From Acidobacteriota bacterium (lineage in GTDB: Bacteria > Acidobacteriota > CAIWXX01): a DNA stretch of 64,000 nt. Every line of letters begins with the position of its first letter. Within the stretch, counting starts at the first letter, position 1. The notes beneath the pieces are model-generated. The model made no database searches. It saw nothing but the letters and a program-made list of their open reading frames with translations, and was not told where the DNA came from. Shown here in pieces: positions 1-42,778 of this stretch. The translations under genes and the position numbers were made by a program. The stretch is taken from assembly GCA_040755995.1 (NCBI GenBank), contig JBFMAF010000010.1, positions 160,001-224,000 on the forward strand, read 5' to 3'.

Positions 1-803
1 GCCGGCAGCAGCTGGCGAGGGGTGCCAGACGCCCTCATGGCAACGGCCGTCGAGCGCCACGTGAGTGGAAGACAAACGAAGGCCGCCCAGGCCAGCGGCG
101 GGAGAGTTCCCGAGAGTAGGGCCGCCAAGAGGATGACATGGGCGACTGTCACGACGCAGGCGTACAGCCTGACCGTACTTGCCTGCCCTACCCTCACGCA
201 GATGTTCCGTTTGCCCACCAGGCGGTCCTGGAAGTAGTCGGGGATTTCGTTGAGTACCGCAATGCCGAACAGGAGGAGACCCGGTATCAGCGAGACCAGC
301 AACGGGAGCACGTCGATTCGTCTAGTCTGAACGTAGTAGCTCCCCAGTGTCATGAGAGGGCCGTAACAGCAGGCTATGGTGATCTCGCCGTATCCCCGGT
401 ACGCGAGCCTGAGCGGAGGTCCGAGGTAGAGGAACGCGCCGACGAATCCGGCAAGAGAGAACGCGATGATGGGCATTCCACACCTCAGGGCGAGCAGAGT
501 GGCAACCAGAAGCGCGCCCGAGAAGGCAATGACGCCAACCTGAAACGTGCGCACCGTCACAGGGACCGGTTCCAACTGGAACACCCTGTCTGTGCCAGCG
601 CGCCAGTCGAAGTACTCGTTGAAGGCCTCGACCCCGACCAGCACGAGCAGAATTCCGCCCAGACCCACAAGAAACAGGCCGGCATCGAATCGCCTCTCCG
701 CGTGGAAGGCGGCGGAGCTGCCCAGTGCGTAAGGCAACAGCCCGGCGAAGAGGAGGAACCGGTAGCGGAGGAGCCTCAGCAGCCCGGATAAAGCTCCACC
801 CAC
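1..803 (-). CDS. UbiA/MenA-family membrane prenyltransferase (3' end beyond window edge)
   Basis: Not in ORF track. Manual translation from GTG at 803: VGGALSGLLRLLRYRFLLFAGLLPYALG…VEAFNEYFDWRTGTD…YLGPPLRLAYRGYGE…VLNEIPDYFQDRLVGKRNI. It has both Asp-rich UbiA/MenA motifs and many TM segments, and overlaps the 3' end of the rSAM gene. Confidence 0.88.
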   Translation of the reverse strand, partial: MGGALSGLLRLLRYRFLLFAGLLPYALGSSAAFHAERRFDAGLFLVGLGGILLVLVGVEAFNEYFDWRAGTDRVFQLEPVPVTVRTFQVGVIAFSGALLVATLLALRCGMPIIAFSLAGFVGAFLYLGPPLRLAYRGYGEITIACCYGPLMTLGSYYVQTRRIDVLPLLVSLIPGLLLFGIAVLNEIPDYFQDRLVGKRNICVRVGQASTVRLYACVVTVAHVILLAALLSGTLPPLAWAAFVCLPLTWRSTAVAMRASGTPRQLLP

Positions 804-1771
804 TTGTTGGCCTCTCCCAGCAGCCTTGGATCTTCCACCACACGTTTGGCGAACGTCACGACCTCCGGCTCTCGCCACGCTCTCTTGTAACGCTGCCAGG
901 CCTCCGAGAGGGAGTGTCTTCTGAGGTCCGCGCAGACGAAGGGCAATGGACCGATGAGCTTGACCTTGCCATTCGGGATGACCAGCAGGCTCGCAGCGGG
1001 ACAGTCCAGCCGGTATCTGAGCTCCTCGACCACGTCATACGGGTAGTAGTAGATCTTCATCTTGCCGTCGTACTTCGTCTGCTTCTCCTTCAACACATCG
1101 AAGAACTTCTCGTACTCCGTCTCCGTTGGGCACAGCAGATCCCAGTTACGCGCGGCACGCCCTATGCGCATTATCTTGCCCGTGTAGAAACCGTATGTCC
1201 CCATTCTGTAAGCCATCTCGATGACATCACCCGTCTCATGGATGTTGAATTTGGAGGGAACGAAGACGATCTCTGTGGTCACACCAGCCGCCACGAGGTG
1301 GTCGCAGGCCTCAACGACCTTCTCCCAATCCCCATTCGGTCGCATCATTCGGAAGGTCTGCGGGGTTGAACCATCTACGCTCACCTGAACAGACCTGAAT
1401 CCCAGCGCTCCAATCCGGTTCGCCACCTGACGGTCGATCAGGAGGCCGTTGGTTTCCACCTTCAGGCTAGTCCCATGGGCTCGCAGGAACGAGCTGATCT
1501 CGAAGAAGCGCGGGTGGAGAAGCGGCTCCCCACCGGAGATGGCCACGTAAGGGATTCGCAGATCGACGATCTGCTTGAGAAAGAACGTAACCTCTTCGGG
1601 CGTGAGCTCGTCCGAGAACAGGTGGTCTCCCACTTCCTCGCAGCAGTGCAGGCAGGACAAGTTGCACGCGGAGTTCAACTGCCATGCTACGAACAGTGGG
1701 GCATCGAAGTCGCTGTAGCTGGTCCCTGCAATCGCCGCCGCGGGCGCAGCCTGGGTCGGATCGTGTGTCAT
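776..1771 (-). CDS. Radical SAM peptide maturase (MftC/PqqE-like) with Cys-poor twitch/SPASM-like C-terminus
   Basis: FDAPLFVAWQLNSACNLSCLHC (CxxxCxxC), SGGEPLL, VETNG, VQVSVDG motifs; C-terminal CPAASLLVIPNGKV. Confidence 0.9.
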   Translation of the reverse strand: MTHDPTQAAPAAAIAGTSYSDFDAPLFVAWQLNSACNLSCLHCCEEVGDHLFSDELTPEEVTFFLKQIVDLRIPYVAISGGEPLLHPRFFEISSFLRAHGTSLKVETNGLLIDRQVANRIGALGFRSVQVSVDGSTPQTFRMMRPNGDWEKVVEACDHLVAAGVTTEIVFVPSKFNIHETGDVIEMAYRMGTYGFYTGKIMRIGRAARNWDLLCPTETEYEKFFDVLKEKQTKYDGKMKIYYYPYDVVEELRYRLDCPAASLLVIPNGKVKLIGPLPFVCADLRRHSLSEAWQRYKRAWREPEVVTFAKRVVEDPRLLGEANKWVELYPGC

Positions 1772-2031
1772 TCCTGTGGCTCCTTCATCATGATGCCGTT
1801 GGTCTGCAGCTTCTGAACAAACTCCTGCACTTCTTCGCGAATTCCCACCGGTTCCTTCCGGTAGACCCGCGAGAGATCCGCAGCTACGGCGTCGACGCTT
1901 TTCCTTTCCTCGAGCAGTCGCAAGATGCGGGCGCCGGTCTCATTGGTCACGAACAACTTCTCGCTGAGCGTCTCGAACACAACAGCACCGAATTTCTCCT
2001 GGCGCACTCTCACGTGCTTTTCGAACTGCAT
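1768..2031 (-). CDS. PqqD/MftB-like RiPP recognition element (peptide chaperone), 87 aa
   Basis: RBS GAGGAGG before ATG 2031. VRVRQEKFGAVVF…LFVTNETGARILRLL…DLSRVY…EVQEFVQKLQTNGI fits the PqqD fold pattern; ATGA overlap with the rSAM gene. Confidence 0.87.
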   Translation of the reverse strand: MQFEKHVRVRQEKFGAVVFETLSEKLFVTNETGARILRLLEERKSVDAVAADLSRVYRKEPVGIREEVQEFVQKLQTNGIMMKEPQE

Positions 2032-2063: not shown

Positions 2064-2128
2064 CAAGCCCGGGCTCCCGCTCGCATGTGAGAGGAAGGGG
2101 TTGATCACAGCCGGGGAGCCCGAGCTTG
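2064..2128 (-). other. Stem-loop between precursor gene and RRE gene
   Basis: caagcccgggctccc (2064-2078) pairs with gggagcccgagcttg (2114-2128), one mismatch; inner tgtga/tcaca pairing. Confidence 0.6.
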
Positions 2129-2141
2129 CACTCGGCGCGTA

Positions 2142-2288
2142 TCACGTGAACCTGATGTAGGGCTGGGCCATCACACGCCCGGACACGTCCTCAAGGGTCG
2201 GTTTCGTCCATTCCAACCCGTTGTCGCCTTCGGGCTCGGATCGCGTCTCTCTCGCCATCGCAACGCTCTCGCATGCTGCATTCTCCAA
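2142..2288 (-). CDS. Putative RiPP precursor peptide (48 aa from TTG 2288; 38 aa from ATG 2258)
   Basis: Strong RBS AAAGGAGGTG (2304-2295) 6 nt before the in-frame TTG. Sequence MENAACESVAMARETRSEPEGDNGLEWTKPTLEDVSGRVMAQPYIRFT has a WxxPxL RRE-binding-type motif and lies directly upstream of the RRE and rSAM genes. Confidence 0.8.
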   Translation of the reverse strand: MENAACESVAMARETRSEPEGDNGLEWTKPTLEDVSGRVMAQPYIRFT

Positions 2289-2317
2289 TTCGCTCACCTC
2301 CTTTCCGGCAATGGGAT

Positions 2318-2350: not shown

Positions 2351-2992
2351 TCACGCGGAAAGACCCTTCCTCAACACCTCCACGATGTCATCCACAAACT
2401 GCTCCAGTTCCGGCCTCTCCCTGTCCCAGATGCGGCCTGCCGAATCTAGAAAGGCAAGGGCATGTGCCTGCAGAAACCGGTCCATCACTGCATCCAACAG
2501 GAAGACTGCAGCCTTCATGTCGATGTCCTTGCGGATCTCGCCTCTCGCCCTCCCCTGCAGAAGTAAGGAGTGGAGGTACTCCGCCGAGAAGAGACGGATC
2601 TTCTGGAGCAGCTCTTCCCGAAACGGGGCTTCCCTCCCGTATACCATTCTGAGATAGATCCCGTAAATCAAGGGATGACGATCTATGAAGTCAACCCCTG
2701 CCAGAAGAGACTTCCGTATCCTCTCGAAGACCGGATCATCCTTGGTCTCGGCCTTGACCTGCTTGAGCGTCTTGCGCACGAGGTCGACCGCATGGTCGAA
2801 GGTATGGAGAAAGAGACTCCGCTTGTTGTTGAAATACTGGTAGATCGATCCCTTGGCTATCCCCAGGCGGGCTACGATCTCGTTGATGCTGGCGCGCTCA
2901 TAGCCCTTCTCGGAGAATTCCCGGATGGCGGTCTCCAGCACCCTGTTCCGCTTATCCTCGGGGAGATTGAAGAAGGTCTTCCTCGCTTCCAC
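2351..2992 (-). CDS. TetR/AcrR-family transcriptional regulator
   Basis: TFFNLPEDKRNRVLETAIREFSEKGYERASINEIVARLGIAKGSIYQYF HTH. Confidence 0.95.
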   Translation of the reverse strand: MEARKTFFNLPEDKRNRVLETAIREFSEKGYERASINEIVARLGIAKGSIYQYFNNKRSLFLHTFDHAVDLVRKTLKQVKAETKDDPVFERIRKSLLAGVDFIDRHPLIYGIYLRMVYGREAPFREELLQKIRLFSAEYLHSLLLQGRARGEIRKDIDMKAAVFLLDAVMDRFLQAHALAFLDSAGRIWDRERPELEQFVDDIVEVLRKGLSA

Positions 2993-3029: not shown

Positions 3030-3072
3030 GTGACCATGCGGTCATAATACAGCGCGATGAGACACACGTCAA
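3030..3072 (-). promoter_or_regulatory. Sigma70-type promoter for tetR (TTGACG-N17-TATTAT) overlapping a TGACC-ATGC-GGTCA operator
   Basis: -35 at 3072-3067, -10 at 3049-3044, palindrome at 3031-3044. Confidence 0.65.
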
Positions 3073-3671
3073 CCCGAACTCTCGCGTTTCCATGCCCCGA
3101 CGTGTTCGTTGTCCTCGGTGTTCCAAAGGTGCTGCGCCGCAACTACCTCATATGGGAAGAAGGCCAGGTACCCACGGTGGTTATCGAGGTGACTTCGGCA
3201 TCCTCGCGCGTGGAGGATCTCGGATCGAAGAAGGGCCTCTATGAACAGCTCGGCGTGCGCGAGTATTTCCTCTTCGACCCGCTCGGCGACTACCTCAAGC
3301 CGCAGCTACAGGGTTTCCGACTGACTCCGGATGGTTACATGCGTGTGCTTGGGACGGAGCTTGCTAGTGAAGTGCTGGGGCTGCGCTTGGTCACCGAGTC
3401 GGATGGGCTGAGGCTCTACGACATCCGGACCGGAGCGAAGCTGGAGAAGTACGAGGAGACGATGGAGCGCCTCAGGAGAGAGCGCGAGCGCGCGCAGCTG
3501 GAACAGGCGAGGGCCGACGAGGAGTCGCGGCGAGCCGAGGTGGAGAGAATGCGGGCTGACGAAGAGGCGCGGCGGGCTGAGGAGCAGAGGCTTCGGGCCG
3601 ATCATGCAGAAGCCGAGATCGTCAGGCTGCGAGCGGAGCTGGCCAGGTTGAGATCTGAACTGGGCCGCTGA
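3071..3671 (+). pseudogene. Uma2/DUF820-family endonuclease-like gene, 5'-truncated and probably frameshifted
   Basis: PDVFVV…WEEGQVPTVVIEVTS…DLGSKKGLYEQLGVREYFLFDP motifs plus a coiled-coil tail. The upstream NPNSRVS is in another frame and the usual N-terminus is absent. Confidence 0.6.
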
Positions 3672-5427: not shown

Positions 5428-6900
5428 TCAGAGCGCGGCGAGGCGGTAGAGCGAATCCAGCGTGAGGGTGACACGTTCGTACAGCCAGGTCGGGTAGATC
5501 CCGAACCAGATGATGAAGAACGTGCCGGCGGCGAGTACGAGCGTCAGAGAAAAGAACGCAGGGGCCGGCTTGATCTCGGCGGTCTCCGGCTTCATGTAGG
5601 CGAAGATCACCGGCCGTATGTAGTAGTAGAGCGACAGGGCCGAGTTCAGAACCGCGAAGACGACCAGATATGTATGCCCTGCCTGGAGCGCCGCCTTGAA
5701 TACGAAGAACTTCCCAAAAAAGCCGGCCGTCGGCGGAATCCCCGCGAGCGACAGCAGGCTCAGGGCCAGCACCGCGCCTATCACAGGGTTCTTGAAGCCC
5801 AACCCGCCGTACCGGTCTATGTCCACCAGCTCCTCGTCCTCCCGCACCAGCGCGATCACTGCCCCAAAGGCGGCGAAGTTCATCGCGGCGTACGCGACCA
5901 GATAAAACATCATCGCGGCCACACCGCCGGGGCTTCCCGCCACGAACGCCATGAGGACGTAGCCTACGTGCGCGATCGAAGAGTATGCGAGCATTCGCTT
6001 GATGTTGTTCTGCCGCAACGCGGCAAAGTTGCCTATCAGCATCGTGCACGCCGAGATGACGACAGCCATGTGGCGCCACTCGACCTCCAGCGACGGGAAC
6101 GCCGTGAGGAGTACGCGGGCCAGGGCGGCGAAGCCCGCCATCTTGGGCCCGACCGCCATGAACGCCGTGACCGGCGTCGGCGCTCCCTGGTAGACGTCGG
6201 GGGTCCACATGTGGAACGGGAAAGCCGAGATCTTGAACAGGAACCCCACAAGGAGCAGCGCAAGGCCGGGGCCTATGTACTGCGGGTGGTGCATCGTACC
6301 CCTGGCGATGCTGTCCGCCACCGCGGGGAGGAAGGTCGTGCCGGTCGCCCCGTATACCATAGCGATGCCAAACAGGAAGAACGACGTCGAGAACGCGCCC
6401 AGCAGGAAATACTTGACGGCGGCTTCGACCGAGTACACATTCTCGCGCTGGAAGCCCGCCATCGCGTAGAGGCCGACCGACAGGATTTCGATCCCGATGA
6501 AAATCACGAGCAGCTCCTTGCTCGTGACGATGCTCATCATGCCGACCACGGAGAACAGCAAGAGGGCAAAGAACTCCCCGTGCAATATCTTCTGTGCCGT
6601 GAGAAACGAAATCGACAACAACACGGCGGCGGCGGCCACGAGCAGGAACACGAACCGGAAGAAGAACCCGTATGAGTCCAACGTGAGCATGCTGTCGTAC
6701 GCCGTGCCCACGGTGCCGGTCAAGCGTAACAGGGCGTACAGCGCAACCAGGATGCCGGCCAGGGAGATGTACGGCGCGTAGCGCCGCGAGAACGCGGGGG
6801 CCATGGCCGCCAGCAGCATCACGGCGACGCCGGTCAGCAGAAGCGTCATCTCCGGACCGAGCGCCGCGAGGCTCACCAGCGGGGGCGAGATTGCGTTCAT
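5428..6900 (-). CDS. nuoN: NADH-quinone oxidoreductase subunit N
   Basis: EAAVKYFLLGAFS, FKISAFPFHMWTPDVYQGAPTP, IKRMLAYSSIAH; start MNAISPP at 6900. Confidence 0.95.
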   Translation of the reverse strand: MNAISPPLVSLAALGPEMTLLLTGVAVMLLAAMAPAFSRRYAPYISLAGILVALYALLRLTGTVGTAYDSMLTLDSYGFFFRFVFLLVAAAAVLLSISFLTAQKILHGEFFALLLFSVVGMMSIVTSKELLVIFIGIEILSVGLYAMAGFQRENVYSVEAAVKYFLLGAFSTSFFLFGIAMVYGATGTTFLPAVADSIARGTMHHPQYIGPGLALLLVGFLFKISAFPFHMWTPDVYQGAPTPVTAFMAVGPKMAGFAALARVLLTAFPSLEVEWRHMAVVISACTMLIGNFAALRQNNIKRMLAYSSIAHVGYVLMAFVAGSPGGVAAMMFYLVAYAAMNFAAFGAVIALVREDEELVDIDRYGGLGFKNPVIGAVLALSLLSLAGIPPTAGFFGKFFVFKAALQAGHTYLVVFAVLNSALSLYYYIRPVIFAYMKPETAEIKPAPAFFSLTLVLAAGTFFIIWFGIYPTWLYERVTLTLDSLYRLAAL

Positions 6901-8459
6901 TCTCGATCTCCGACGGCTGCCGTGGTGTGCGGGCCTGTCTCGATGCCGCGCTGTTCGACCTGGACGGGCCTGGACACGGTCGCGCCGTAAAGCAACTGCC
7001 TGGTCGATGCGTGCATGCACCTGGTGAACATCGGTGAGTAGATGCCCATGAGGAAAATGCAGATGATCAGTGGCACGAGTGTGAGCGTCTCGCGGGGGTT
7101 CAGGTCGGGGTGTTTCGAATGCTTTTCCGGTGCTACTCCATAGAGCATGCGCTGGAGGGCCCAGAGCATGTAGACGGCGCTCAGGATGACCCCGGTCGAC
7201 GCGATCACCGCAAACACCGCGCGGCTCTTGAAGGTTCCCATCAGAATCAGGAACTCGCCGACGAACCCATTGGTACCCGGGAGTCCGATGGAGGAGAGCG
7301 CGACGATCAGGAAGAAGGCGGAGTACACGGGCATGACCTTCCAGAGTCCGCCAAGGGCCGCGATCTCGCGCGTGTGCGCGCGCTCGTAGATCACGCCGAC
7401 GATTATGAACAGCGCTCCGGTGGAGACGCCGTGGTTCAGCATCTGATAGATGGCCCCCTCGACCGCCTCCTGATTGAGAGCGAAGATGCCCAGAACGACG
7501 AAGCCGAGGTGTGCGACGGAGCTGTACGCAACCAGCTTCTTGATGTCCTTTTGAATCATGGCCATGAGCGATCCATAGATGATCCCGACAAGCGCCATGA
7601 TCATGATGAAACCTGCGTACTCGTGCGTCGCGTGCGGGAAGAGCGGAAGATTGAAGCGCAGCATGCCGTAGGTGCCCATCTTCAGCAGGATCCCTGCCAG
7701 CAGCACGCTGCCTGCGGTGGGAGCCTCGACGTGCGCATCGGGAAGCCACGTGTGGAACGGGAAGAGCGGCACTTTGATTGCAAACGCGAGGAAGAAGGCC
7801 CAGAAGAGCCAGATCTGCTCGGTCGAGCTAATGTCCAGCGCGTAGAGCCGCAGGATGGAGAACGTCCCATGCCCCTCTTGGGCGGCATACAACTGGTACA
7901 AGTAGATGATGCCCACGAGCATGAGCACGCTGCCGACGAGCGTGTAGATGAAGAACTTGATCGACGCGTAAATCCGTCTCGGCCCGCCCCAGATCCCGAT
8001 CAAGAAGTACATCGGGATCAGCATGCCCTCCCAGAACAGGTAGAACAGAAGCAGGTCCAGGGACACGAAGACGCCGATCATGCCCGTCTCGAGCAGCAGC
8101 ATCATGAAGAAATATTCCCTGACCCGTTCGGTGATCGCAGAGAAAGACGCGAGCACTGAGAGGACCATGAGGAAGGTCGTCAGCAGCACCAGGAACAGCG
8201 AGATGCCGTCGATTCCGAGATCGTAGCTCGTGTTCAGCTGCGGGATCCAGGTGCGGGACTCGCAGAACTGGAAGCCCGGGCGCGTCGGATCGAACCCGAA
8301 GTACAGTTTGAGCGACAGCAGGAAGTCCAGCAAGGTGACGGCGAATGCAAACAGGCGGATCTGTCGAAGGCTCTGGCGTGGGATCAGGATCAGAAGAAAG
8401 GCGCCGAGCAGGGGTACGAACGTGACGGCGGAGAGGAGCGATCCTTGCAGCATGCCCAT
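6897..8459 (-). CDS. nuoM: NADH-quinone oxidoreductase subunit M
   Basis: AIKVPLFPFHTWLPDAHVEAPTAGS, KKLVAYSSVAHLG. Confidence 0.96.
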   Translation of the reverse strand: MGMLQGSLLSAVTFVPLLGAFLLILIPRQSLRQIRLFAFAVTLLDFLLSLKLYFGFDPTRPGFQFCESRTWIPQLNTSYDLGIDGISLFLVLLTTFLMVLSVLASFSAITERVREYFFMMLLLETGMIGVFVSLDLLLFYLFWEGMLIPMYFLIGIWGGPRRIYASIKFFIYTLVGSVLMLVGIIYLYQLYAAQEGHGTFSILRLYALDISSTEQIWLFWAFFLAFAIKVPLFPFHTWLPDAHVEAPTAGSVLLAGILLKMGTYGMLRFNLPLFPHATHEYAGFIMIMALVGIIYGSLMAMIQKDIKKLVAYSSVAHLGFVVLGIFALNQEAVEGAIYQMLNHGVSTGALFIIVGVIYERAHTREIAALGGLWKVMPVYSAFFLIVALSSIGLPGTNGFVGEFLILMGTFKSRAVFAVIASTGVILSAVYMLWALQRMLYGVAPEKHSKHPDLNPRETLTLVPLIICIFLMGIYSPMFTRCMHASTRQLLYGATVSRPVQVEQRGIETGPHTTAAVGDRE

Positions 8460-10345
8460 CAGAACACCCAGATCGACAGCAGCAACACGGCGCCAACGAG
8501 CATTGCGGCGGCGTATGCCTTGAGGTTGCCGGTCTGTATCCTGGCGAGAACCCGGCCGGTCTCCATCGCGCCTGCGGCAATGGAGTCGAGCGTGTGATCG
8601 ATGACGCCCAGGTCGAAGGCCGTGTAGACGCGATCGGAGCCGTTCTTGAGCGGGTCGACGATCGCGGCGTCATACCCCTCGTCCACGAAGTACTTGTTGA
8701 GCAGCACCTTGTAGAGCCGCCGGAATCTCTCGGCAAGGCGCTTCGGCGTATCCGGCTCCTTGATGTAATAGTGGTACGCGAGAAGCCAGCCGATAGCCAT
8801 CACCGCCACAGCCGCGGCGGCCAGCACCTTCGGCAAGGCCCCGTGCACCGCGGCGTGCTCGACCTCGCGATGAGCCCAGATCGAACCGCTGATGAAATGC
8901 GGCAGCGAACTGTACACCCAACCCGCCGCGATACTTCCCAGCGCCAGCAGCATCAGCGGCGTCGTCATGCTCCGCGGCGACTCGTGCGGATGCACAGCAG
9001 GATCGACGCGGCTGACTCCGAAGAAAGTCATGTTCAGCAGCCTGAACATGTAGAAAGACGTCATGGCCGCCGTGCTAATCCCTATCGCCCAGAGCCAGAC
9101 GTTCGTCTCGAACGCCTTCTCGAGTATCAAGTCCTTGCTGTAGAAGCCCGAAAGCCAGGGAAAGCCGGTGATCGCCAGCGTTGCCACTGCGAAGGTCCAC
9201 GTGGTGATCTTGAGCTTCTTGCCCAGACCTCCCATCCTGCGTATGTCCTGCTCGCCGGACATCGCGTGAATCACGCTGCCGGCGCCCAGGAAAAGCAGCG
9301 CCTTGAAGAATGCATGGGTGTACAGATGGAATATCGCCGCGTCGAACGCAGCGACGCCGCAGGCAAGGAACATGTAGCCCAGCTGGCTCACCGTGGAATA
9401 GGCGAGCACGCGCTTGATATCGTTCTGGACCAGCCCGATCGACGCGGCGAAGAAGGCCGTCATCGCACCCACCCAGGCCACCACGAGCAGCACCCAGGTA
9501 GTCCTCGCGTACAGGTCACCCATTCGCGCGATCATGTAGACGCCCGAGGTCACCATCGTCGCGGCATGGATCAGGGCCGAGACGGGCGTCGGGCCTTCCA
9601 TCGCGTCGGGCAGCCAGACGTAAAGCGGAATCTGCGCGGACTTGCCGGTGGCACCTATGAACAGGCACAGTGCGATGAGGTTCAGCAGCAGGCTCCCTTG
9701 CGGCACCTCCTGCACCTGCGCCAGGATGGGCTGTATGTTCAATGTGCCGAAGTTCGCATAGAGCAGCATCATGCCGGCCAGGAAGCCTGCGTCTCCCACC
9801 CGGTTGACTACGAACGCTTTCTTGCCCGCGTCCGATGCCGACTTACGCTCGTACCAGAACCCGATCAGGAGGTACGAACACAGCCCGACGCCCTCCCAGC
9901 CGATGAACAGGACCACGAGGTTCGAACCAAGCACGAGCATCAGCATGGCGAACGTGAAGAGGTTCAAGTACGTGAAGTACCGGGAGTAGTCCCGGTCGTG
10001 ATGCATGTACCCGACCGAGTACACGTGGATCAAGAAGCCCACGCCGGTGACGACCAGGCACATGATCAGGGAGAGCGAATCGAGGCGGAAGGCGAGGTCG
10101 ATCTGCATGCCGCCTGAGTCGATGAATCTGAACAGCGGCGGTCCATCCAGCGGAAGCGCGTGGAACCCGGGCAGCTGCACACCCAGCGTCATCAGCAGGT
10201 ACCCGACCGTGATCAGGAACGAGCCGAACACCGAGAGACACGCCAGCAGCGAGATCGCGGGCCGCGGCATCCTGAGGCCGAGCAGCGCGAGGATCAGTGC
10301 CGAGGCCGCGGGAAATAGCGGGATCAGCGCAACGTATTCGCTCAT
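8459..10345 (-). CDS. nuoL: NADH-quinone oxidoreductase subunit L
   Basis: GKSAQIPLYVWLPDAMEGPTPVSALIHAATMV, HAFFKALLFL. Confidence 0.96.
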   Translation of the reverse strand: MSEYVALIPLFPAASALILALLGLRMPRPAISLLACLSVFGSFLITVGYLLMTLGVQLPGFHALPLDGPPLFRFIDSGGMQIDLAFRLDSLSLIMCLVVTGVGFLIHVYSVGYMHHDRDYSRYFTYLNLFTFAMLMLVLGSNLVVLFIGWEGVGLCSYLLIGFWYERKSASDAGKKAFVVNRVGDAGFLAGMMLLYANFGTLNIQPILAQVQEVPQGSLLLNLIALCLFIGATGKSAQIPLYVWLPDAMEGPTPVSALIHAATMVTSGVYMIARMGDLYARTTWVLLVVAWVGAMTAFFAASIGLVQNDIKRVLAYSTVSQLGYMFLACGVAAFDAAIFHLYTHAFFKALLFLGAGSVIHAMSGEQDIRRMGGLGKKLKITTWTFAVATLAITGFPWLSGFYSKDLILEKAFETNVWLWAIGISTAAMTSFYMFRLLNMTFFGVSRVDPAVHPHESPRSMTTPLMLLALGSIAAGWVYSSLPHFISGSIWAHREVEHAAVHGALPKVLAAAAVAVMAIGWLLAYHYYIKEPDTPKRLAERFRRLYKVLLNKYFVDEGYDAAIVDPLKNGSDRVYTAFDLGVIDHTLDSIAAGAMETGRVLARIQTGNLKAYAAAMLVGAVLLLSIWVF

Positions 10346-10367
10346 GAGTATCTCAATTGACCGGCCA

Positions 10368-10670
10368 CTAGCCTTTCATCAGGTCCACCCGCTCGCTGTC
10401 CAGGTTCTCCTTGTGGTGGAAAAGGGCGATCATGATGGCGAGCCCAACGGCGGCTTCGGCCGCCGCCACGGTGATGACGAAGAACACGATGATCTGTCCC
10501 GCCACGTCGCCGAGCGATCGCGAGAATGCGATGAGGGCCAGGTTTGCGCCGTTGAGCTGCAGCTCGACGCACATGAAGAGCGTGATGAGATCCCGCCTGA
10601 AGAACACTCCGACGACACCGATCGTGAACAGAACGGCGCTCAGAATCAGGTACCAGTTCAGCGGGATCAT
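10368..10670 (-). CDS. nuoK: NADH-quinone oxidoreductase subunit K
   Basis: 100 aa; CVELQLN, VAAAEAAVGLAI. Confidence 0.95.
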   Translation of the reverse strand: MIPLNWYLILSAVLFTIGVVGVFFRRDLITLFMCVELQLNGANLALIAFSRSLGDVAGQIIVFFVITVAAAEAAVGLAIMIALFHHKENLDSERVDLMKG

Positions 10671-11158
10671 AGCTTCTTCTTCGCGAGCATCACCGCGCCC
10701 ACGATCGCGGCCAGTATCAGCACGGAGCTCAGCTCGAACGGGTAGATGTAGTGTGTGAAGAGCTGCGTCCCGATCTCCTCCACCGTCGTCTCCGGCGCCC
10801 GCGAAGCGGCCACCTGTCCCGCCGGGCTCCTTAGCGCCACTACCAGCTCGATGAATAGCATCAGTCCGAAAGCCACTGCGAACGGCAGGACTCGGGGCCT
10901 CTTCTGCGGTTGCTCTCGGGCCGTGAGGTTCAGCAGCATGATGACGAACAGGAAGAGGACCATGATCGCCCCGGCGTATACGATGACCTGGATCGCCGCT
11001 ATGAACGGCGATCCCAGGAGAACGTAGAGTCCCGCAAGAGCGAAGAAGGCCAGCACCAGGCAGAGGCAGCTGTTCACCGCGTTGCGCTGGAATAGCATGG
11101 CCACGGCCGAGGCGACGGCGATGGCGGCCAACAGAAAGAAGGCGGCTATCGCGATCAC
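10667..11158 (-). CDS. nuoJ: NADH-quinone oxidoreductase subunit J
   Basis: QVIVYAGAIMVLFLFVIMLLN, PFELSSVLIL; GTG start overlaps nuoH stop. Confidence 0.93.
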   Translation of the reverse strand: MIAIAAFFLLAAIAVASAVAMLFQRNAVNSCLCLVLAFFALAGLYVLLGSPFIAAIQVIVYAGAIMVLFLFVIMLLNLTAREQPQKRPRVLPFAVAFGLMLFIELVVALRSPAGQVAASRAPETTVEEIGTQLFTHYIYPFELSSVLILAAIVGAVMLAKKKL

Positions 11159-12213
11159 GCGGCCCTCAGCGAGATCCAGACGGCGGTGGCGAGGATATTG
11201 GCCATGGAGAGCGGGAACAAGAACTTCCATCCAAAGGCCATGAGCTGGTCATATCGAAGACGAGGCAGAGTAGCACGGAGCCACACGTACACGAAGAGCA
11301 GAAAGAGCACCTTCACAACGAACCATCCGAGGCCCACGATCCAGCCGTAGGATGTGCCTGGCGATGCACCCCAGCCGTTCCAGCCGCCGAGGAACAGCGT
11401 CGTGGCCAGGCATGATACACCGATCATATTGATGTATTCGCTCATGAAGAACATCGCGAACTTCATGGAGCTGTACTCGGTGTGGAAGCCGGCCACCAGC
11501 TCCTGCTCGGCCTCGGGGAAATCGAAAGGAGCGCGATTGGTTTCCGCCACGCCGCAGATGAAGTAGAGCAGGAATGCCAGAAACCCCATCGGAGCCTGAA
11601 AGATGAACCACCGCGGGACGAATCCCGCAAAATACCCGGACTGGGCGCTGACGATCGAGTTGAGGCTGAGCGACCCAGCCAGCATCAACACCGCCACAGT
11701 CGATAGGCCGAGGCTGAGCTCGTAACTCGCCATCTGCGCCGTAGACCGCAGCGCTCCGAGCAGCGCGTACTTGCTGTTGCTGCTCCACCCCGCCAGCACA
11801 ATGCCGTACACACCCATGGCCGTAGCCGAGAAGACGATCAGCAGGCCGATGTTCAAGTCGGTGAGCTGCAACGAAAGCGGGGTCTTCACCAAACCGAAGA
11901 GGGTGGTGTCGGGCCCGAACGGGATGACCGAGAACCCAAGGAATGCCGTCGTGATTCCAATGAGCGGCGCGATATAGTAGATGACCTTGTCGGCCTGCGG
12001 CGGCACGAAGTCCTCTTTGAACATCAGCTTGATGGCATCGGCAAAGGGCTGCAGTATTCCGTGCGGCCCCACGTACATCGGCCCGAGCCTGCTCTGGAAG
12101 TGCGCCACCGCCTTGCGCTCGAACCACACCATGAACGGAACACCAGTCATGACCACTGCGAAGACTGCCACGCACTTGACCGCGATGAGGAGAAACTCAA
12201 GAAAGCCCGTCAC
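11155..12213 (-). CDS. nuoH: NADH-quinone oxidoreductase subunit H
   Basis: ERK…RLGP…GILQPFADAIKL, AETNRAPFDFPEAEQELVAGF. Confidence 0.96.
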   Translation of the reverse strand: MTGFLEFLLIAVKCVAVFAVVMTGVPFMVWFERKAVAHFQSRLGPMYVGPHGILQPFADAIKLMFKEDFVPPQADKVIYYIAPLIGITTAFLGFSVIPFGPDTTLFGLVKTPLSLQLTDLNIGLLIVFSATAMGVYGIVLAGWSSNSKYALLGALRSTAQMASYELSLGLSTVAVLMLAGSLSLNSIVSAQSGYFAGFVPRWFIFQAPMGFLAFLLYFICGVAETNRAPFDFPEAEQELVAGFHTEYSSMKFAMFFMSEYINMIGVSCLATTLFLGGWNGWGASPGTSYGWIVGLGWFVVKVLFLLFVYVWLRATLPRLRYDQLMAFGWKFLFPLSMANILATAVWISLRAA

Positions 12214-12713
12214 GCCTTCGCCTCGCCTTGACTCTCAGCCTGCGCCCTCAATTCCTCGATCAGCCGATCGAGCTTCTCGATGTCCAGTCCCTCGTTGTAC
12301 GCTTCCTGATTGACCTGGATGACAGGTGCGGTCCCGCAGGAACCGAGGCATTCTACGGTGGAGAGGGTGAAATGTCCATCAGGCGTCGTCTCGCCTGGCT
12401 TGATACCCAGCCTGTTCTTGAGATGCTCCAGAAGCCGCTCGCCTCCCAGCAGCATACAGCTCACATTCGTGCACAACTGAAGGTGAAAGCGCCCGGCGGG
12501 CTTGAGCCTGAACATCGTGTAAAACGTGATGACCGCGTAAACCTCCACCGGCTCTACGCCCAGCAGGGCCGCGATCCACCGAATCGCCTCCTTGGTGATG
12601 TGCCCCTCCTGCTTCTGCACCAGATACAGCGTCGGGAGAAGCGCCGCGCGCTTCTGCGGATAGCGGCCGAGAATTCTGTCGAATTCCCTCTGGTTCTCAG
12701 CAGTGAATTGCAT
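12210..12713 (-). CDS. nuoE: NADH-quinone oxidoreductase subunit E (2Fe-2S)
   Basis: RYPQKRAALLP, TFYTMF, CTNVSC, VECLGSC. Confidence 0.93.
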   Translation of the reverse strand: MQFTAENQREFDRILGRYPQKRAALLPTLYLVQKQEGHITKEAIRWIAALLGVEPVEVYAVITFYTMFRLKPAGRFHLQLCTNVSCMLLGGERLLEHLKNRLGIKPGETTPDGHFTLSTVECLGSCGTAPVIQVNQEAYNEGLDIEKLDRLIEELRAQAESQGEAKA

Positions 12714-12746
12714 CTAGTAGTGCAGGGGTCCTTTCTCCCGAAAAAA

Positions 12747-13928
12747 TCAGCGGTCGATTTCACCCAGAACGATATCGAGGCTGCCGATGACGGCGACGAG
12801 GTCGGCCAGCATCGCCCCCTCGGCCATCTTCGACAGAGCCTGGAGGTTCACGAAGCTCGGGGGCCGGATGCGGCATCGGAACGGCTTCGCCGTTCCGTCG
12901 GATACGAGGTAGAACCCGATCTCTCCCTTGGGCGCCTCGACGGGCACGTACGCCTCGCCGGCAGGCGGCCTGACCCCGTTGCAGACGATGAGGAAGTGGT
13001 GGATCAGCGCCTCCATGCTGGTGTGCAGTGTGTTCCTGGGCGGCAGGACGACCTTCGGAGCGTCGGCGATGTATGCGCCGGAAGGGAGCTTCGCGAGCGT
13101 CTGCTCGACGATTCGCACGCTCTGCCGGATTTCGGCGATGCGCACCCGATACCGATCGTACACGTCGCCGTTGGCGCCTACCGGCACTTCGAAGTCGTAC
13201 TGCTCGTACCCGCTATACGGATTGGTCTTTCGGATATCCCACCCGACACCGCTCGCGCGCAGCGCCGGCCCGGAGAGGCCCAGGTTCATCGCGTCGGCCG
13301 CGGAGATCCGGCCGACGCCCACGGTGCGATTCAACCAGATCTTGTTGCGGGTCAGCAGGGTCTCGTACTCGTCCACTCTGGGCTTGAAATAGTCTATGAA
13401 GTCCTTCACGCGTTTGGTGAAGTCTGCTGGTATGTCGGCGGCAAGTCCTCCGATTCTGAAGTACGACACCGTCAGGCGCGCGCCGCAGACCTGTTCGAAG
13501 AGGTCCATGATCACCTCGCGCTCGCGGAAGCAGTACAGCAGCATGGACATCGCGCCGATGTCGATCGCGTGTGTGCCGAGCCAGACCAGGTGGGACGCGA
13601 TGCGCTGGAGCTCGGTCAACATCACGCGGACTGTTTGCGCCCGCGGCGGCACGTCGACACCAACCAGCTTTTCGGTCGACAGCATGAAGGCCAGGTTGTT
13701 GCTCATGGGCGCCAGGTAGTCGAGCCTGTCGGTCATGGTCATGGCCTGGATGTAGGTCTTGTTCTCCGCGGTCTTCTCTATGCCCGTATGGAGGTATCCG
13801 ATGTGCGGTGTCGCTCTCACGATCCGCTCGCCGTCAAGCTCCAGCACGATCCTCAACACGCCGTGGGTGGACGGGTGCTGCGGGCCCATGTTGACGGTCA
13901 TGGTTTCGGTGCGAATCAGGTCAGGCAT
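12747..13928 (-). CDS. nuoD: NADH-quinone oxidoreductase subunit D
   Basis: NMGPQHPSTHGVLR, GYLHTGIEK, DIVLGEIDR; lacks NiFe CxxC motifs. Confidence 0.97.
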   Translation of the reverse strand: MPDLIRTETMTVNMGPQHPSTHGVLRIVLELDGERIVRATPHIGYLHTGIEKTAENKTYIQAMTMTDRLDYLAPMSNNLAFMLSTEKLVGVDVPPRAQTVRVMLTELQRIASHLVWLGTHAIDIGAMSMLLYCFREREVIMDLFEQVCGARLTVSYFRIGGLAADIPADFTKRVKDFIDYFKPRVDEYETLLTRNKIWLNRTVGVGRISAADAMNLGLSGPALRASGVGWDIRKTNPYSGYEQYDFEVPVGANGDVYDRYRVRIAEIRQSVRIVEQTLAKLPSGAYIADAPKVVLPPRNTLHTSMEALIHHFLIVCNGVRPPAGEAYVPVEAPKGEIGFYLVSDGTAKPFRCRIRPPSFVNLQALSKMAEGAMLADLVAVIGSLDIVLGEIDR

Positions 13929-13935
13929 GGGCGCA

Positions 13936-14460
13936 TCAGAAAGGCGGGCCGCCTTCTTCCTTCGGCGTTTGATGGACGTCTTCGAAGAACCCCCGTTCAG
14001 GTTGGTACCCGAGCGGGAAGTCCTTCCGCAGCGGGTGCCCCTCGAAGCCGTCGTACATGAGTATCCTGCGCAAGTCCGGATGGCCGTCCGCCTTGAGGCC
14101 GAACATGTCGAACACCTCGCGCTCGTGCCAGTTGGCGGTCGCGAAGACGCCGGTTGCGGTCGGGTACGACTCGCCGTCCGCCAGCCTCAGGACCAGCAGC
14201 ACGCGCTCGCCGGACTGCACGCACGTGAGGTTGTATACGATCTCGAAGCGCGGCTCTCGCGGGTGGAAGTCGATCGCGAAGAGGTCCGACAGGAATTCGA
14301 ATCCGCACTCACGGGCTGCGCCAAGGAGCTCCACCAGCTTTTCCTTCCTCACTGCATACGCTTCGAAGGCCTTTCCTGCGACGGGCTGCAGTTCGGCGGC
14401 GAGCTCCGCTCCAACGCGTGCTGCGAGCCGGTCTCGGAAGGAGGTGGTCTTCTCGCTCAT
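13936..14460 (-). CDS. nuoC: NADH-quinone oxidoreductase subunit C
   Basis: [13 protein letters not shown]…[10 protein letters not shown]…[10 protein letters not shown]; start MSEKTT at 14460. Confidence 0.95.
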
Positions 14461-14954
14461 GCGACGAGTTTGCCCTTCGACTTGAGGATCTTCTCCTGGA
14501 GTCTGAATATGCCGTCCAGCAGCTGTTCCGGGCGCGGGGGGCAGCCCGGCACGTACACATCCACCGGAACGACGCGGTCGACGCCCTGGACTATGGCGTA
14601 GTTGTTGAATATTCCCCCGCACGAGGCGCACGCGCCCATCGAGATCACCCATTTCGGCTCGGACATCTGGTCATAGATCTGTCGCAGCACCGGAGCCATC
14701 TTCTGCGAGACGCGCCCCGCGACGATCATGAGATCCGCCTGGCGGGGCGAGGCCCGGAACACCTCCGAGCCGAAGCGTGCGATATCGAACCGGCCTGCGC
14801 CAGTGGCCATCATTTCGATCGCGCAGCAGGCCAATCCGAAAGTGACGGGCCATATCGAGCTCTTTCGGGCCCAGTTGATCACCTTGTCGGCTGATGTAAG
14901 CAGAACCTGGTCCTTGACCTCCTCAGCCAACTTATTCAAATCTCGTTCTTTCAT
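14457..14954 (-). CDS. nuoB: NADH-quinone oxidoreductase subunit B
   Basis: [34 protein letters not shown]. Confidence 0.97.
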
Positions 14955-15022
14955 TTCAACACTCTCCCGGGCGCAGCCCGGGACCGACTTTGTACTTCAT
15001 ATTTCAGACTTCACGCTTCTCG

Positions 15023-15394
15023 TCAGTCCCAGTTGAGTGCACCCTTCTTCCACACATAGAGGAAGCCGGTGAACACGATTCCCAGGTAGATAGCCATCTC
15101 CACGAAGACGAACAGGCCCAATGATGGCAGCCTGGCCATATCGGAGTAGATGACCGCCCAGGGATAGATGAAGACGGCCTCCATGTCGAAGAGTATGAAA
15201 AGCATTGTGATCAGGTAGAACTTCACCGAGAAGCGCAGCCGGGCGTCCCCCACCGGTTCCATGCCGCACTCGTATGGCATGTCCTTGCGGGAGGATCGCA
15301 CGCGCGGGCCGAAGAAGTTCGAAATCAGGATCGTGACCGTCCCGAAACCCAGCGCGATCGCGAACAGGACAACGAATGGTACCCAGGGACTCAT
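15023..15394 (-). CDS. nuoA: NADH-quinone oxidoreductase subunit A
   Basis: PYECG, FILFDMEAVFIYPWA, WKKGALNWD. Confidence 0.96.
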   Translation of the reverse strand: MSPWVPFVVLFAIALGFGTVTILISNFFGPRVRSSRKDMPYECGMEPVGDARLRFSVKFYLITMLFILFDMEAVFIYPWAVIYSDMARLPSLGLFVFVEMAIYLGIVFTGFLYVWKKGALNWD

Positions 15395-17327: not shown

Positions 17328-19274
17328 ATGTCGAGGAAGGCATACACTCTGGTTCTTCTGTTCGTCGTGGCAGGGCTTGTGTCTGCACAGGAGATCGAGG
17401 TGCGGAGCCAAGTCAAGCAGGATCTGCAGCGCTTCAGCATGGAGCAACTGTTCAACACGCGCATTATTGGATCGGCCTGCTGGTCGTCCGACGGAGCGAC
17501 CGTCGCCTTCATCTCCAACATCTCAGGCCGCATGAACATATGGACAGTGCCCGCAGCGGGCGGGTGGCCTACCCAGCTTACGCTCTGCGATGAGAGGCAG
17601 AGCGAGCTGGCGTGGTCGCCGGACGGCAAGTTGATCGCGTATGTGCAGGACTACGGAGGCGACGAGCAGTGGGATGTCTATGTCGTCTCCACGGAGAACG
17701 GCGGGATCGTCAATGTGACCAATACGCGTGCGGTTTCGGAGATCAAGCCGATCTGGACGCCCGACGGAAGATCGATCGCGTTCGCGAGGAAGCCGAAAGA
17801 GAGCAGCTCGTATGAGATCTGCTATCGTGAGCTCGCCCAGCCCAAGCTCCTCGCGTTGACCTCCGGCACACCTCCCAACTTCACCAACGAGCCCGTGGCA
17901 TTCTCAGCGGACGGCAAGTTTCTCGTCTACAATCAGGTTCGAAACGACTGGAAGGACTCCAACGTTTATATCGTCGACATGGCGACGGCCAAGTCGAGGA
18001 ACCTCACGACACACAAGATCGAAGGAGTCAAGGGCGAAGCCCTGTATCTCGCCACGGGCATCTCGCCGGACGGAACGAAGGTCCTGATGACGTCCAACGC
18101 TGCCAGCGGTTACGCAAACGCCGCGCTGTTGGACGTGAACACCGGCAAGATCGACTGGCTGACGAAGGATCAGTGGGAGATCGAGAGCGGGAACTTCTCT
18201 CCGGATGGCCGCTACGTCACCTGGGTCGCGAATGTCAACGCGAACCTCGACGTGCACATCCGCGAGCTGGCCAGCGGGAACACGCAGGTGGTGCCGATGA
18301 AGAAAGGCATCAACAAACTGGCCGGCGCCCCCACGGCATTCTCCCGAGACGGGCGGAAGCTGCTCGTGTACCACGAGGGAGCCGATTCGCCCCGGGACGT
18401 CTGGGTCTACGATCTCGGCTCGGCGAAGGCGACACAGATCACTCGCTCGCTCATTGGCGGCCTGCGCGGATCGGATTTCGTGGAGCCCTACATCATCCGC
18501 TATCCTTCCTACGGCACTCTGACCGTCCCGGCACTGGTCTACGTTCCTTACAACCTCAGGAAGACGGCGAGCAGCCCGGCGGTGATCTTCCCGCACGGAG
18601 GTCCGGCCGATCAGGCGCTCAACGGCTTCAGTCGCATGATCCAGTTCCTGGTGAACAACGGCTACATCGTCATCGCGCCGAACTATCGCGGGAGCACCGG
18701 GTATGGCAAGGTGTTCGAGGACGAGAACAGGCTTGACCTGGGCGGCGGTGACATGACGGATGTGCACTATGCAGCGCAGTACGCCGTGAACACCGGGTAC
18801 GTCGATCCCAAGAAGCTGGTGGTTCTCGGCGCGAGCTACGGTGGGTACCTTGCGCTCATGTGCGCTGCGAAGGTGCCGCAGGACAACTGGGCCGCCTGCG
18901 TCGCCTACAGCCCTGTGGTGAACTGGTTCACCCAACTCCAGACCACCGACCCGGTACTGCGCCAGCACCTGCTGATGACGATGGGAGATCCGGCGAAGGA
19001 TCCGGAGGCCAAGAAGCGCTTCGAGGAACGCTCGCCCATAAACAGCACGCAGGCAATCAAGGCACCTCTGCTGATCGCGGTCGGGAGCAACGATGCGAGG
19101 TGCCCAAAGAGCGAGGCCGATCAGATCGTGAACGCCGTGAAGAGCCACGGAGGTACCGTCGAGTACAAGATCTACGACAACGAAGGGCACAAGATCTCCA
19201 AGCGCGAAAACCAGATCGACCTGATCAAACGCACCCTCGAATTTCTAGAGAAACACGCCAAAAACCGCACGTAG
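17328..19274 (+). CDS. S9-family peptidase with PD40/WD40 propeller, exported
   Basis: Signal peptide; WSPDG repeats; HGGP, GASYGG, NDARC, EGH catalytic motifs. Confidence 0.93.
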   Translation: MSRKAYTLVLLFVVAGLVSAQEIEVRSQVKQDLQRFSMEQLFNTRIIGSACWSSDGATVAFISNISGRMNIWTVPAAGGWPTQLTLCDERQSELAWSPDGKLIAYVQDYGGDEQWDVYVVSTENGGIVNVTNTRAVSEIKPIWTPDGRSIAFARKPKESSSYEICYRELAQPKLLALTSGTPPNFTNEPVAFSADGKFLVYNQVRNDWKDSNVYIVDMATAKSRNLTTHKIEGVKGEALYLATGISPDGTKVLMTSNAASGYANAALLDVNTGKIDWLTKDQWEIESGNFSPDGRYVTWVANVNANLDVHIRELASGNTQVVPMKKGINKLAGAPTAFSRDGRKLLVYHEGADSPRDVWVYDLGSAKATQITRSLIGGLRGSDFVEPYIIRYPSYGTLTVPALVYVPYNLRKTASSPAVIFPHGGPADQALNGFSRMIQFLVNNGYIVIAPNYRGSTGYGKVFEDENRLDLGGGDMTDVHYAAQYAVNTGYVDPKKLVVLGASYGGYLALMCAAKVPQDNWAACVAYSPVVNWFTQLQTTDPVLRQHLLMTMGDPAKDPEAKKRFEERSPINSTQAIKAPLLIAVGSNDARCPKSEADQIVNAVKSHGGTVEYKIYDNEGHKISKRENQIDLIKRTLEFLEKHAKNRT

Positions 19275-28557: not shown

Positions 28558-28884
28558 TCAGAACGCCACGACCAGCCCGGCGCTCGCGTCGAACTGCAGC
28601 ATCCCCCAGCCAGAGATGCGTATGGTGCTGCCCTGACCGCCGAAGCCACCCGCGGCGGCCGCGCCCGAGAAGATGCCCAGGGCCCGGGCTTCCAGCATGC
28701 AGTAGTTAAGCGCATGCAGAAACCTCGATTCCGAAATCCATTTCCGCCGGTCTACCAGTTCGTTGTGCATGATCGCGATCTGGCCTGTGGGCCCCCCGAA
28801 ACTGATGAAGCCGAGCTTCAGCCAGAAGCGAAGTGCCTGGCCCAGCGTGGGCCGGGGCGGTGACGTCGTTCCAGTTGTATTCAT
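28558..28884 (-). pseudogene. chrA: Truncated chromate transporter ChrA (N-terminal ~64 aa only)
   Basis: [45 protein letters not shown]; similarity stops before the expected LPGP. Confidence 0.8.
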
Positions 28885-42564: not shown

Positions 42565-42778
42565 GACGATCCTGCACGGACTCCGGACCCAACTGCGTTG
42601 TGGAGTGGACGCGGGGACGCGGGGACGCGGCGAGGGGGCGAAAAGGCGCTGCCGCTCTCGTCTGATCGACATCGCGCCGCCGCAATGGCGTGCCGACGGG
42701 ATCAGCCACAGCTCGGATTGCGCGCGATCCGACCTTTTGATAGATTGTATGAAGAAGATGTGCCGAGGAGAGACAAAC

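Follow-up and report, generated by a model that had tools for sequence, protein, structure and literature searches.

In the 64,000-nucleotide window analysed here, a stretch of an Acidobacteriota genome, a short open reading frame lies in a tight minus-strand run comprising a tetR gene, the frame itself, a hairpin, a gene for a RiPP recognition element (RRE), a radical SAM gene and a UbiA-family gene that leaves the window. We asked whether the frame is a genuine precursor gene and, if so, what kind of molecule is made from it. The frame (positions 2142-2288, minus strand) reads TTG-ENAACESVAMARETRSEPEGDNGLEWTKPTLEDVSGRVMAQPYIRFT-stop, a predicted peptide of 48 aa. A first-pass annotation had preferred this TTG to a GTG at 2354, and we came to the same choice: a Shine-Dalgarno sequence, AAGGAGGTGA (2294-2303, minus strand), stands 5 nt upstream of the TTG, and the same AAGGAGGTGA precedes the 48-aa homologues in loci L002, L004 and L068. 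The GTG start was rejected, as it overlaps the tetR stop, spans a putative operator (see below) and would give 70 aa vs 47-48 aa in the nearest homologues. The WTKPTLED motif and the Y-x-x-F arrangement pointed out earlier are both present in the 48-aa peptide. The acidic N-terminal part, also pointed out, does exist here (net charge -5 before Trp) but is a local trait rather than a conserved one, the charge before Trp being net positive in 56/69 homologues and negative in 4/69.

We then turned to the conservation of the peptide. Relatives of the radical SAM enzyme at 60% identity or more numbered at least 120, and the locus sample consisted of 80 loci from GTDB genomes (78 family members and 2 weak matches) and the best 80 of 617 metagenome matches. 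A profile was built from the leader columns only, so that the core was not selected for, and run over 161 loci. It gave 122 matches within 16 residues of the stop, whose tails were MAQPYIRFT (118), MAQPFIRFT (2), TAQPYIRFT (1) or spurious (1); the remaining 39/161 loci, which gave no match, were mostly short contigs. The C-terminus, on which the earlier precursor assignment hinged, was thus conserved among homologous loci. The 9 core codons were written as 64 different DNA strings in 68 loci, and all three stop codons were used. Pairwise comparison of these codons yielded 10,492 synonymous vs 132 non-synonymous differences; because possession of the core was the criterion by which the 68 loci were picked, the scarcity of non-synonymous differences is in part a product of that choice, unlike the synonymous variation. 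The precursor ORF can certainly be taken as a real gene, conserved and under selection, with a conservation far beyond chance. No second precursor copy was found in this genome, the ESM Atlas gave no usable match for the peptide, and a PDB sequence search with the peptide profile returned nothing under E 0.5.

A search with an HMM against 1.84 billion representatives returned 104 matches, 98 of them shorter than 200 aa, and Trp was exactly 22 residues from the end in 88. Counting from this Trp, Pro17 was present in all 88 in-register representatives, Ile19, Arg20 and Phe21 in 87 each, and position 22 was Thr in 87 and Ser in one. Tyr18 was found in 82/88, with Phe in 4/88; position 14 was Met in 84, rarely Thr, Ile or Val, and never Glu; positions 11-12 were free to vary. 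By these counts, the most fixed residues are Pro, Ile, Arg, Phe and the terminal Thr, Tyr being sometimes Phe. The core first proposed, SGRVMAQPYIRFT, proved too long, because its G and R positions vary freely; the homologue tails predict a core of at most (V/I)MAQPYIRFT, of which the near-invariant MAQPYIRFT spans 2145-2171 (minus strand), with the stop directly after. The core Tyr was Phe in 2/121 loci (L063 and L064), so that Tyr, proposed earlier as a site of crosslinking or prenylation, seems dispensable in some cases and is a candidate site at most. Since these two form their own enzyme clade (SH-aLRT 99, quick tree), they may make a variant product. Four other leader-bearing peptides, P0218, P0217, P0221 and P0222, carry altered tails (e.g. 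AKPYFYLRG), which may be frameshifts or true variant cores.

The residues preceding the core form a conserved segment, W-x-x-P-x-L-E-D-V-S-x-x-[VI] (2172-2210, minus strand), in register with PqqA from Trp and predicted to bind the RRE. From Trp onwards, WTKPTLEDVSGRVMAQPYIRFT aligns without gaps to Paraburkholderia PqqA, with 22 residues each and W, T, K, P, D8, Y18 and I19 identical. In this register, which was tested on three annotated PqqA sequences, Met14 falls on PqqA's Glu and Tyr18 on PqqA's Tyr. According to the accessible part of PMC10906245, PqqE crosslinks this Glu to this Tyr. Profile searches gave fainter signals: the paeninodin lasso precursor model matched weakly in 14/34 aligned homologues (best E 0.0016) and the PqqA model in 2/34 (E 0.075). 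The likeness of the leader appears real, weak by HMM and clearer by register. Together, the model matches and the ungapped register support the earlier proposal that the peptide is a precursor of the RiPP type with a leader predicted to bind an RRE.

A lasso-type product was one possibility, as the W/Y-x-x-P-x-L leader motif and a stand-alone RRE are shared with the paeninodin type. However, the core is devoid of an Asp or Glu for the macrolactam, and gene maps and scans showed neither a lasso cyclase nor a B2 protease among the neighbours. More broadly, an antimicrobial or other secreted natural-product RiPP would fit with the lasso-like leader and with the combination of an RRE and a radical SAM enzyme, a common bacteriocin layout according to the accessible part of PMC10114670. 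Yet the core is invariant and single-copy, no conserved transporter, immunity gene or leader peptidase goes with it, and the cassette is placed inside respiratory operons, all of which makes such a product extremely unlikely.

The gene that follows the precursor (1768-2031, minus strand) encodes an 87-aa PqqD-family RRE (PF05402, E 2.9e-13, over cut-off), which remained below the cut-offs of the PqqD (TIGR03859, 32 bits vs a cut-off of 46), MftB and lasso models. Then comes a 331-aa radical SAM enzyme (776-1771, minus strand), in which the CxxxCxxC motif and the partial TIM barrel of SPASM/twitch RiPP maturases are present. Its structural model (pLDDT 89.7) was closest to the RiPP maturase SkfB (Z 28.2, rmsd 2.8, 285 aligned) and also near SuiB and PqqE. 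The fold is SPASM/twitch-like without the conserved auxiliary-cluster cysteines: the SPASM Cys block of PqqE and MftC is missing from the alignment, the only invariant cysteines across 22 paralogues are the three of the SAM cluster, and 65/74 enzymes have 1-2 Cys in the C-terminal part. Auxiliary clusters were proposed as oxidants in SuiB and MftC (PMC10114670, accessible part). Among NCBIfam models, MftC scored best (124 bits vs a cut-off of 265), TIGR02109 (PqqE) reached 74 of 381 bits, and the ESM Atlas returned only unnamed clusters. C280 was considered as an epimerase-type H-donor and rejected: it is invariant in 35 close homologues, but is V, I, P or F in paralogues. Incidentally, we noticed a different system on Clostridium felsineum plasmid p330 (L198, 3049-5259), made up of a PqqD-family protein, a 51-aa peptide whose tail is hydrophobic and rich in aromatic residues, and a radical SAM enzyme that is 27% identical to the cassette enzyme and likewise without the SPASM cysteine block.

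The last gene of the run (1-803, minus strand; PF01040, E 1.2e-24) encodes a MenA/UBIAD1-like membrane prenyltransferase. Its predicted GTG start at 803 overlaps the end of the radical SAM gene, and it ends about 66 nt past the window edge. The best models were those of MenA, with 78-81 bits vs 102 for TIGR00751, hence below cut-off. The best solved relative was UBIAD1 (E 3e-28), chlorophyll synthase being distant (3e-7). The sequences NEYFD..G.DR and NEIPD...DR..GK align with the UBIAD1 motifs, and we take these two acidic motifs to be diphosphate/Mg-binding. The prenyltransferases of the cassettes constitute their own subfamily, with the motifs RYRF, NEYFD and NEIPD. The cassette thus resembles menaquinone maturation: both acidic motifs are retained in its MenA-like membrane enzyme, whose gene frequently adjoins those of a polyprenyl synthase and of quinone-type reductases. 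In contrast with MenA proper, the cassette enzyme is below all MenA cut-offs, has altered motifs (NE for ND, NEIPD) and is always tied to the peptide, the RRE and the radical SAM enzyme; unlike in ordinary menaquinone maturation, men/mqn head-group genes were mostly not found in cassette genomes.

How constant is this assembly? The next gene on the contig, a 1,268-aa ORF some 400 nt further on, recurs in no homologous locus; therefore, the cassette consists of four genes plus the regulator. Among the 92 loci of at least 6 kb, the MenA-like gene was present in 89, the peptide in 87 and the RRE in 86. Two layouts were seen, peptide-RRE-enzyme-MenA, and RRE-enzyme1-MenA-enzyme2-peptide-enzyme3, the latter in Pseudomonadota and in soil or peat-type contigs. 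The paralogues were placed by a quick version of a tree, in which the three proteobacterial ones formed three deep clades, the three copies of the archaeal L064 clustered with one another (support 94), and the L004/L006 and L034/L036/L040 pairs arose inside the single-enzyme clade. Repeated and independent duplications with an unchanged core suggest that several successive reactions are carried out or, possibly, a dosage effect.

These data bear on the possibility that a soluble cofactor akin to PQQ or mycofactocin arises from the peptide through the RRE and the radical SAM enzyme, the prenyltransferase having another substrate. The PqqA register and the rank of MftC among the NCBIfam models argue for it, as do L034 and L049, which have no MenA-like gene right after the radical SAM enzyme. 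But the frequency of the MenA-like gene in long loci, its overlap with the radical SAM gene here and the fact that the MenA-like enzymes are a subfamily of their own argue against it, and we consider it improbable. The product is likely to be a prenylated, peptide-derived molecule.

Comparison with known systems placed the cassette more precisely. PQQ synthesis involves PqqA, PqqD and PqqE, then PqqF/G, PqqB and PqqC. The cassette shares with it a short precursor, a stand-alone RRE and a radical SAM enzyme. It differs from it in that the precursor has M-x-x-x-Y and not PqqA's E-x-x-x-Y, the residues following Tyr are constant here but vary in PqqA, the enzyme is without SPASM cysteines, a prenyltransferase is added and many cassette hosts appear anaerobic. 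Neither pqqB nor pqqC was found among 165 neighbour proteins scanned. With mycofactocin, itself predicted from the pattern of an invariant C-terminus (PMC3023750, accessible part), the cassette has in common such a C-terminus, an RRE, a radical SAM enzyme whose top model is MftC, though below cut-off, a scattered distribution among phyla, in this genome a regulator of the TetR family, and a tailoring enzyme adding a tail. However, the core is MAQPYIRFT vs IDGMCGVY, SPASM domain clusters are lacking, a polyprenyl transferase stands instead of a glycosyltransferase, and none of MftD/E/F recurs among the neighbours. Prenylated RiPPs of the cyanobactin (ABBA) and ComQ types combine a peptide with a prenyltransferase, and their enzymes are soluble or isoprenyl-synthase-like. 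In contrast, a membrane enzyme of the UbiA superfamily is paired with a radical SAM enzyme here. By these scores and gene contents, the fixed four-gene pathway certainly falls outside the PQQ, mycofactocin, lasso and MenA families. By analogy, the cassette would work like PqqA/D/E and then MenA, and it is a member of neither pathway.

The cassette was found under host labels of Planctomycetota, Omnitrophota, Elusimicrobia, Lentisphaerae, Thermodesulfobacteriota, Nitrospirota, WOR-3, Bacillota and Pseudomonadota, and of three archaeal lineages; these labels are the depositors' record titles, nearly all marked as MAGs. The cassette enzyme was present in none of 40 relatives of this genome; the cassette is therefore patchy and probably mobile. 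Plasmids held no close relative, all being under 60% among the matches listed, the best of them at 22-34%. We found no description of the cassette, nor the string PYIRFT, in the literature covered, from which subscription journals were mostly absent. The terms YIRFT, UbiA and prenyl were absent from the searchable supplements of PMC9062424 and PMC7470986, and neither the accessible part of an Omnitrophota preprint nor that of PMC9902471 mentions the cassette.

What lies around the cassette pointed to respiration. A polyprenyl-diphosphate synthase was present in 24/158 loci, directly after the MenA-like gene in 13, and it also stood beside the cassette in Omnitrophota loci with no nqr operon in view. 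An Nqr-like operon was a further neighbour: NqrB was seen in 12 loci, and nqrE and nqrF flanked the cassette in 4. Hdr/Mvh-type genes were recurrent neighbours, the cassette of L005 lying among Hdr-type genes, and the cassette adjoined ETF and ETF-QO in L018, NapC/cytochrome b561/Coq10-like genes in L071 and L072, and MtrA/B-like genes in L078. Two-component genes were frequent too, a histidine kinase cluster occurring in 16 loci. Neither a protease, an exporter nor an immunity gene recurred in the neighbour clusters scanned, and no oxidase or hydroxylase was conserved with the cassette. In the window itself, a complex I operon (5431-15394, minus strand) with NuoA, C, D, E, H, J, K, L, M and N lies about 3 kb from the cassette; the direct adjacency of E to H and of H to J leaves nuoF, G and I outside the run. 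An S9-type peptidase with a TolB-like propeller is encoded 15 kb from the cassette (17328-19274, plus strand), a gene that is not beside homologous cassettes.

We looked at whether cassette and menaquinone pathways complement each other. This genome (99.84% complete) encodes complex I subunits and six NrfD-family genes. It gave no match for MqnA/D, MqnC or UbiD, and no MenB or MenD over cut-off. It has, however, a stand-alone MenA over cut-off (G000:C47; L164 1420-2367; L191), MenG/UbiE (G000:C3; L190 3656-4351) and long-chain polyprenyl synthases. With separate MenA and MenG, menaquinone could be made from scavenged naphthoate head groups, so a salvage-only menaquinone pathway is possible in this genome. 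A RiPP radical SAM C-methyltransferase (TIGR03975, over cut-off) is encoded about 3 kb from the stand-alone MenA. Among the relatives, all of them without the cassette enzyme, MqnA/D or MenB was found in 35/40 (a count that includes the unpublished G025), and the same-family G002 has neither Mqn nor cassette.

We extended the comparison to 50 cassette genomes, drawn from 75 candidate loci; most are incomplete MAGs, and kin are not independent. MenB was found in none, a single MqnA/D-family match in 5 and two such matches in none, and the cassette enzyme was the only UbiA-family match in 13/50, as checked by coordinates. In the class of G059, at least two MqnA/D-family matches were counted by hand in about 129/198 cassette-less genomes vs 0/3 cassette genomes. 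In its order, MqnC over cut-off was present in 13/151 genomes and the cassette in 7/151, with one overlap (G047 has both), which is about chance. This indicated that most of the apparent absence is lineage background, and strict complementarity with menaquinone pathways was unsupported within that order. In the same order, 19/24 NqrB-like genomes had neither cassette nor MqnC, in a test restricted to these two. An obligatory link of the cassette to the Nqr-like complex was likewise dismissed, given these 19/24 genomes and the existence of nqr regions without a cassette. Among 18 fetched nqr regions of the latter sort, a polyprenyl synthase follows nqrF in 6 (L173, L174, L176, L177, L179 and L181; genomes without cassette and MqnC), so the synthase link in that lineage may predate the cassette.

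A possibility was that the RiPP part makes a diffusible aromatic substitute for DHNA, used by MenA and then MenG to give a menaquinone analogue, that is, an alternative head-group pathway. In keeping with this, the genome has MenG and long-chain polyprenyl synthases and no head-group pathway, and the cassette enzyme scores best against MenA models. Yet ring-building or oxidising enzymes beyond the radical SAM enzyme are not conserved, and MenG is unlinked to the cassette in the loci read, a single methyltransferase neighbour being seen, in L061. We regard this pathway as quite unlikely.

Another possibility was a prenylated peptide or lipopeptide that is not redox-active, acting as a membrane-anchored signal, a regulator or an assembly factor of respiratory complexes, with the prenyl group possibly O-linked to the hydroxyl or carboxylate of the terminal Thr. 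This would agree with the lack of a conserved protease or oxidase, with a core that varies least at P, I, R, F and a terminal T/S, with chlorophyll synthase as a distant structural relative, and with the two-component genes that often adjoin. However, chlorophyll synthase is a far more remote relative of the enzyme than the aromatic C-prenylating MenA/UBIAD1 branch is. Moreover, signals usually diverge from one lineage to another, but from Pseudomonadota to archaea this core stays unchanged, and no exporter recurs. On balance, such a lipopeptide seems unlikely.

The reading that we favour is a membrane-bound redox cofactor or electron carrier that would derive from the peptide and be polyprenylated, and we give it about an even chance. 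We favour it because of the neighbours (Nqr-like, Hdr, ETF-QO, polyprenyl synthase, complex I) and of a genome without menaquinone head-group genes. Several points count against it. The formation of a quinone-like head is unexplained, as there is no conserved oxidase or hydroxylase and Tyr-to-Phe variants exist; in addition, there is no anti-correlation with MqnC in one order, the link between Nqr and polyprenyl synthase exists without the cassette, and this genome has a separate MenA and MenG.

For such a carrier, synthesis might proceed as follows. The leader, with its W-x-x-P-x-L-x-D-V motif, would be recognised by the RRE in the way that PqqA is bound by PqqD. Relying on its SAM cluster only, the radical SAM enzyme would then introduce at least one radical C-C bond or oxidation into M-A-Q-P-Y-I-R-F-T; the PqqA register designates Met14-Tyr18 as a candidate pair, and the conserved positions direct attention to Tyr18-Thr22 and to the free C-terminus. 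An unlinked housekeeping protease would release the modified fragment, and the MenA-like enzyme would equip its activated aromatic head with a long isoprenoid chain. Within the membrane, the product would finally serve as an electron carrier for enzymes of the Nqr-like, Hdr, ETF-QO, complex I or NrfD type, either alongside menaquinone or as its replacement. More speculatively, and with somewhat more doubt than belief, the cassette may define a new class of respiratory electron carrier, with a polyprenylated redox head group that is encoded ribosomally and independent of oxygen. This head group would substitute for menaquinone, or add to it, in uncultured anaerobes (bacteria and archaea), and would be built by an auxiliary-cluster-free radical SAM enzyme in successive reactions, split by duplication among two or three paralogues. 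To our knowledge, the peptide-derived redox cofactors are PQQ and mycofactocin, both soluble, and the lipid-soluble carriers that we know of have metabolite-derived head groups. A lipid-tailed cofactor from a ribosomal peptide would, if true, open another way of making respiratory carriers and could account for the working of quinone-type complexes in some apparently menaquinone-less anaerobes. Even if no carrier is made, the cassette would stand for an undescribed RiPP class, in which two of the enzymes are unusual: the radical SAM enzyme is directed by a peptide and has no auxiliary clusters, and the UbiA-superfamily member belongs to a peptide pathway.

Last, we considered how the cassette is controlled in this genome. 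The gene of the TetR-family regulator (2351-2992, minus strand) lies beside the cassette only here and in L004, whose TetR is 70% identical. A palindrome, TGACC-N4-GGTCA (2319-2332), precedes the precursor, 15 nt upstream of the peptide RBS. A second copy (3031-3044) overlaps the end of a sigma70-type tetR promoter, TTGACG-17-TATTAT (3031-3072, minus strand). The window thus holds 2 such sites vs 0.04 expected, and L004 is the only one of loci L002-L161 to have the site, in the same two places. This is good evidence suggesting that the palindromes are putative TetR operators, and TetR probably represses its own promoter and the cassette in this genome. A wider TetR regulon was not seen: there are 16 sites genome-wide vs 8.9 expected, 5 of them intergenic, including the two at this locus. 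Divergent from tetR is a Uma2-family gene (3057-3671, plus strand), and the upstream operator ends 12 nt before its ATG.

Between the precursor and the RRE gene, a strong stem-loop without a U-run (2064-2128, minus strand; z -4.4) probably stabilises the transcript or acts as an attenuator. Downstream of the peptide, such structures (z<=-2) were seen in 37/120 loci vs 6/118 coding controls. Hairpins are frequent in intergenic DNA, and because of this the finding lends weak support to the precursor being made in excess. Elsewhere in the window, we noted an OS_HP2 (seleno)protein-like domain (42605-43780, plus strand; 95 bits vs a cut-off of 100) and a short fragment (28561-28884, minus strand) matching only the start of a chromate efflux transporter.
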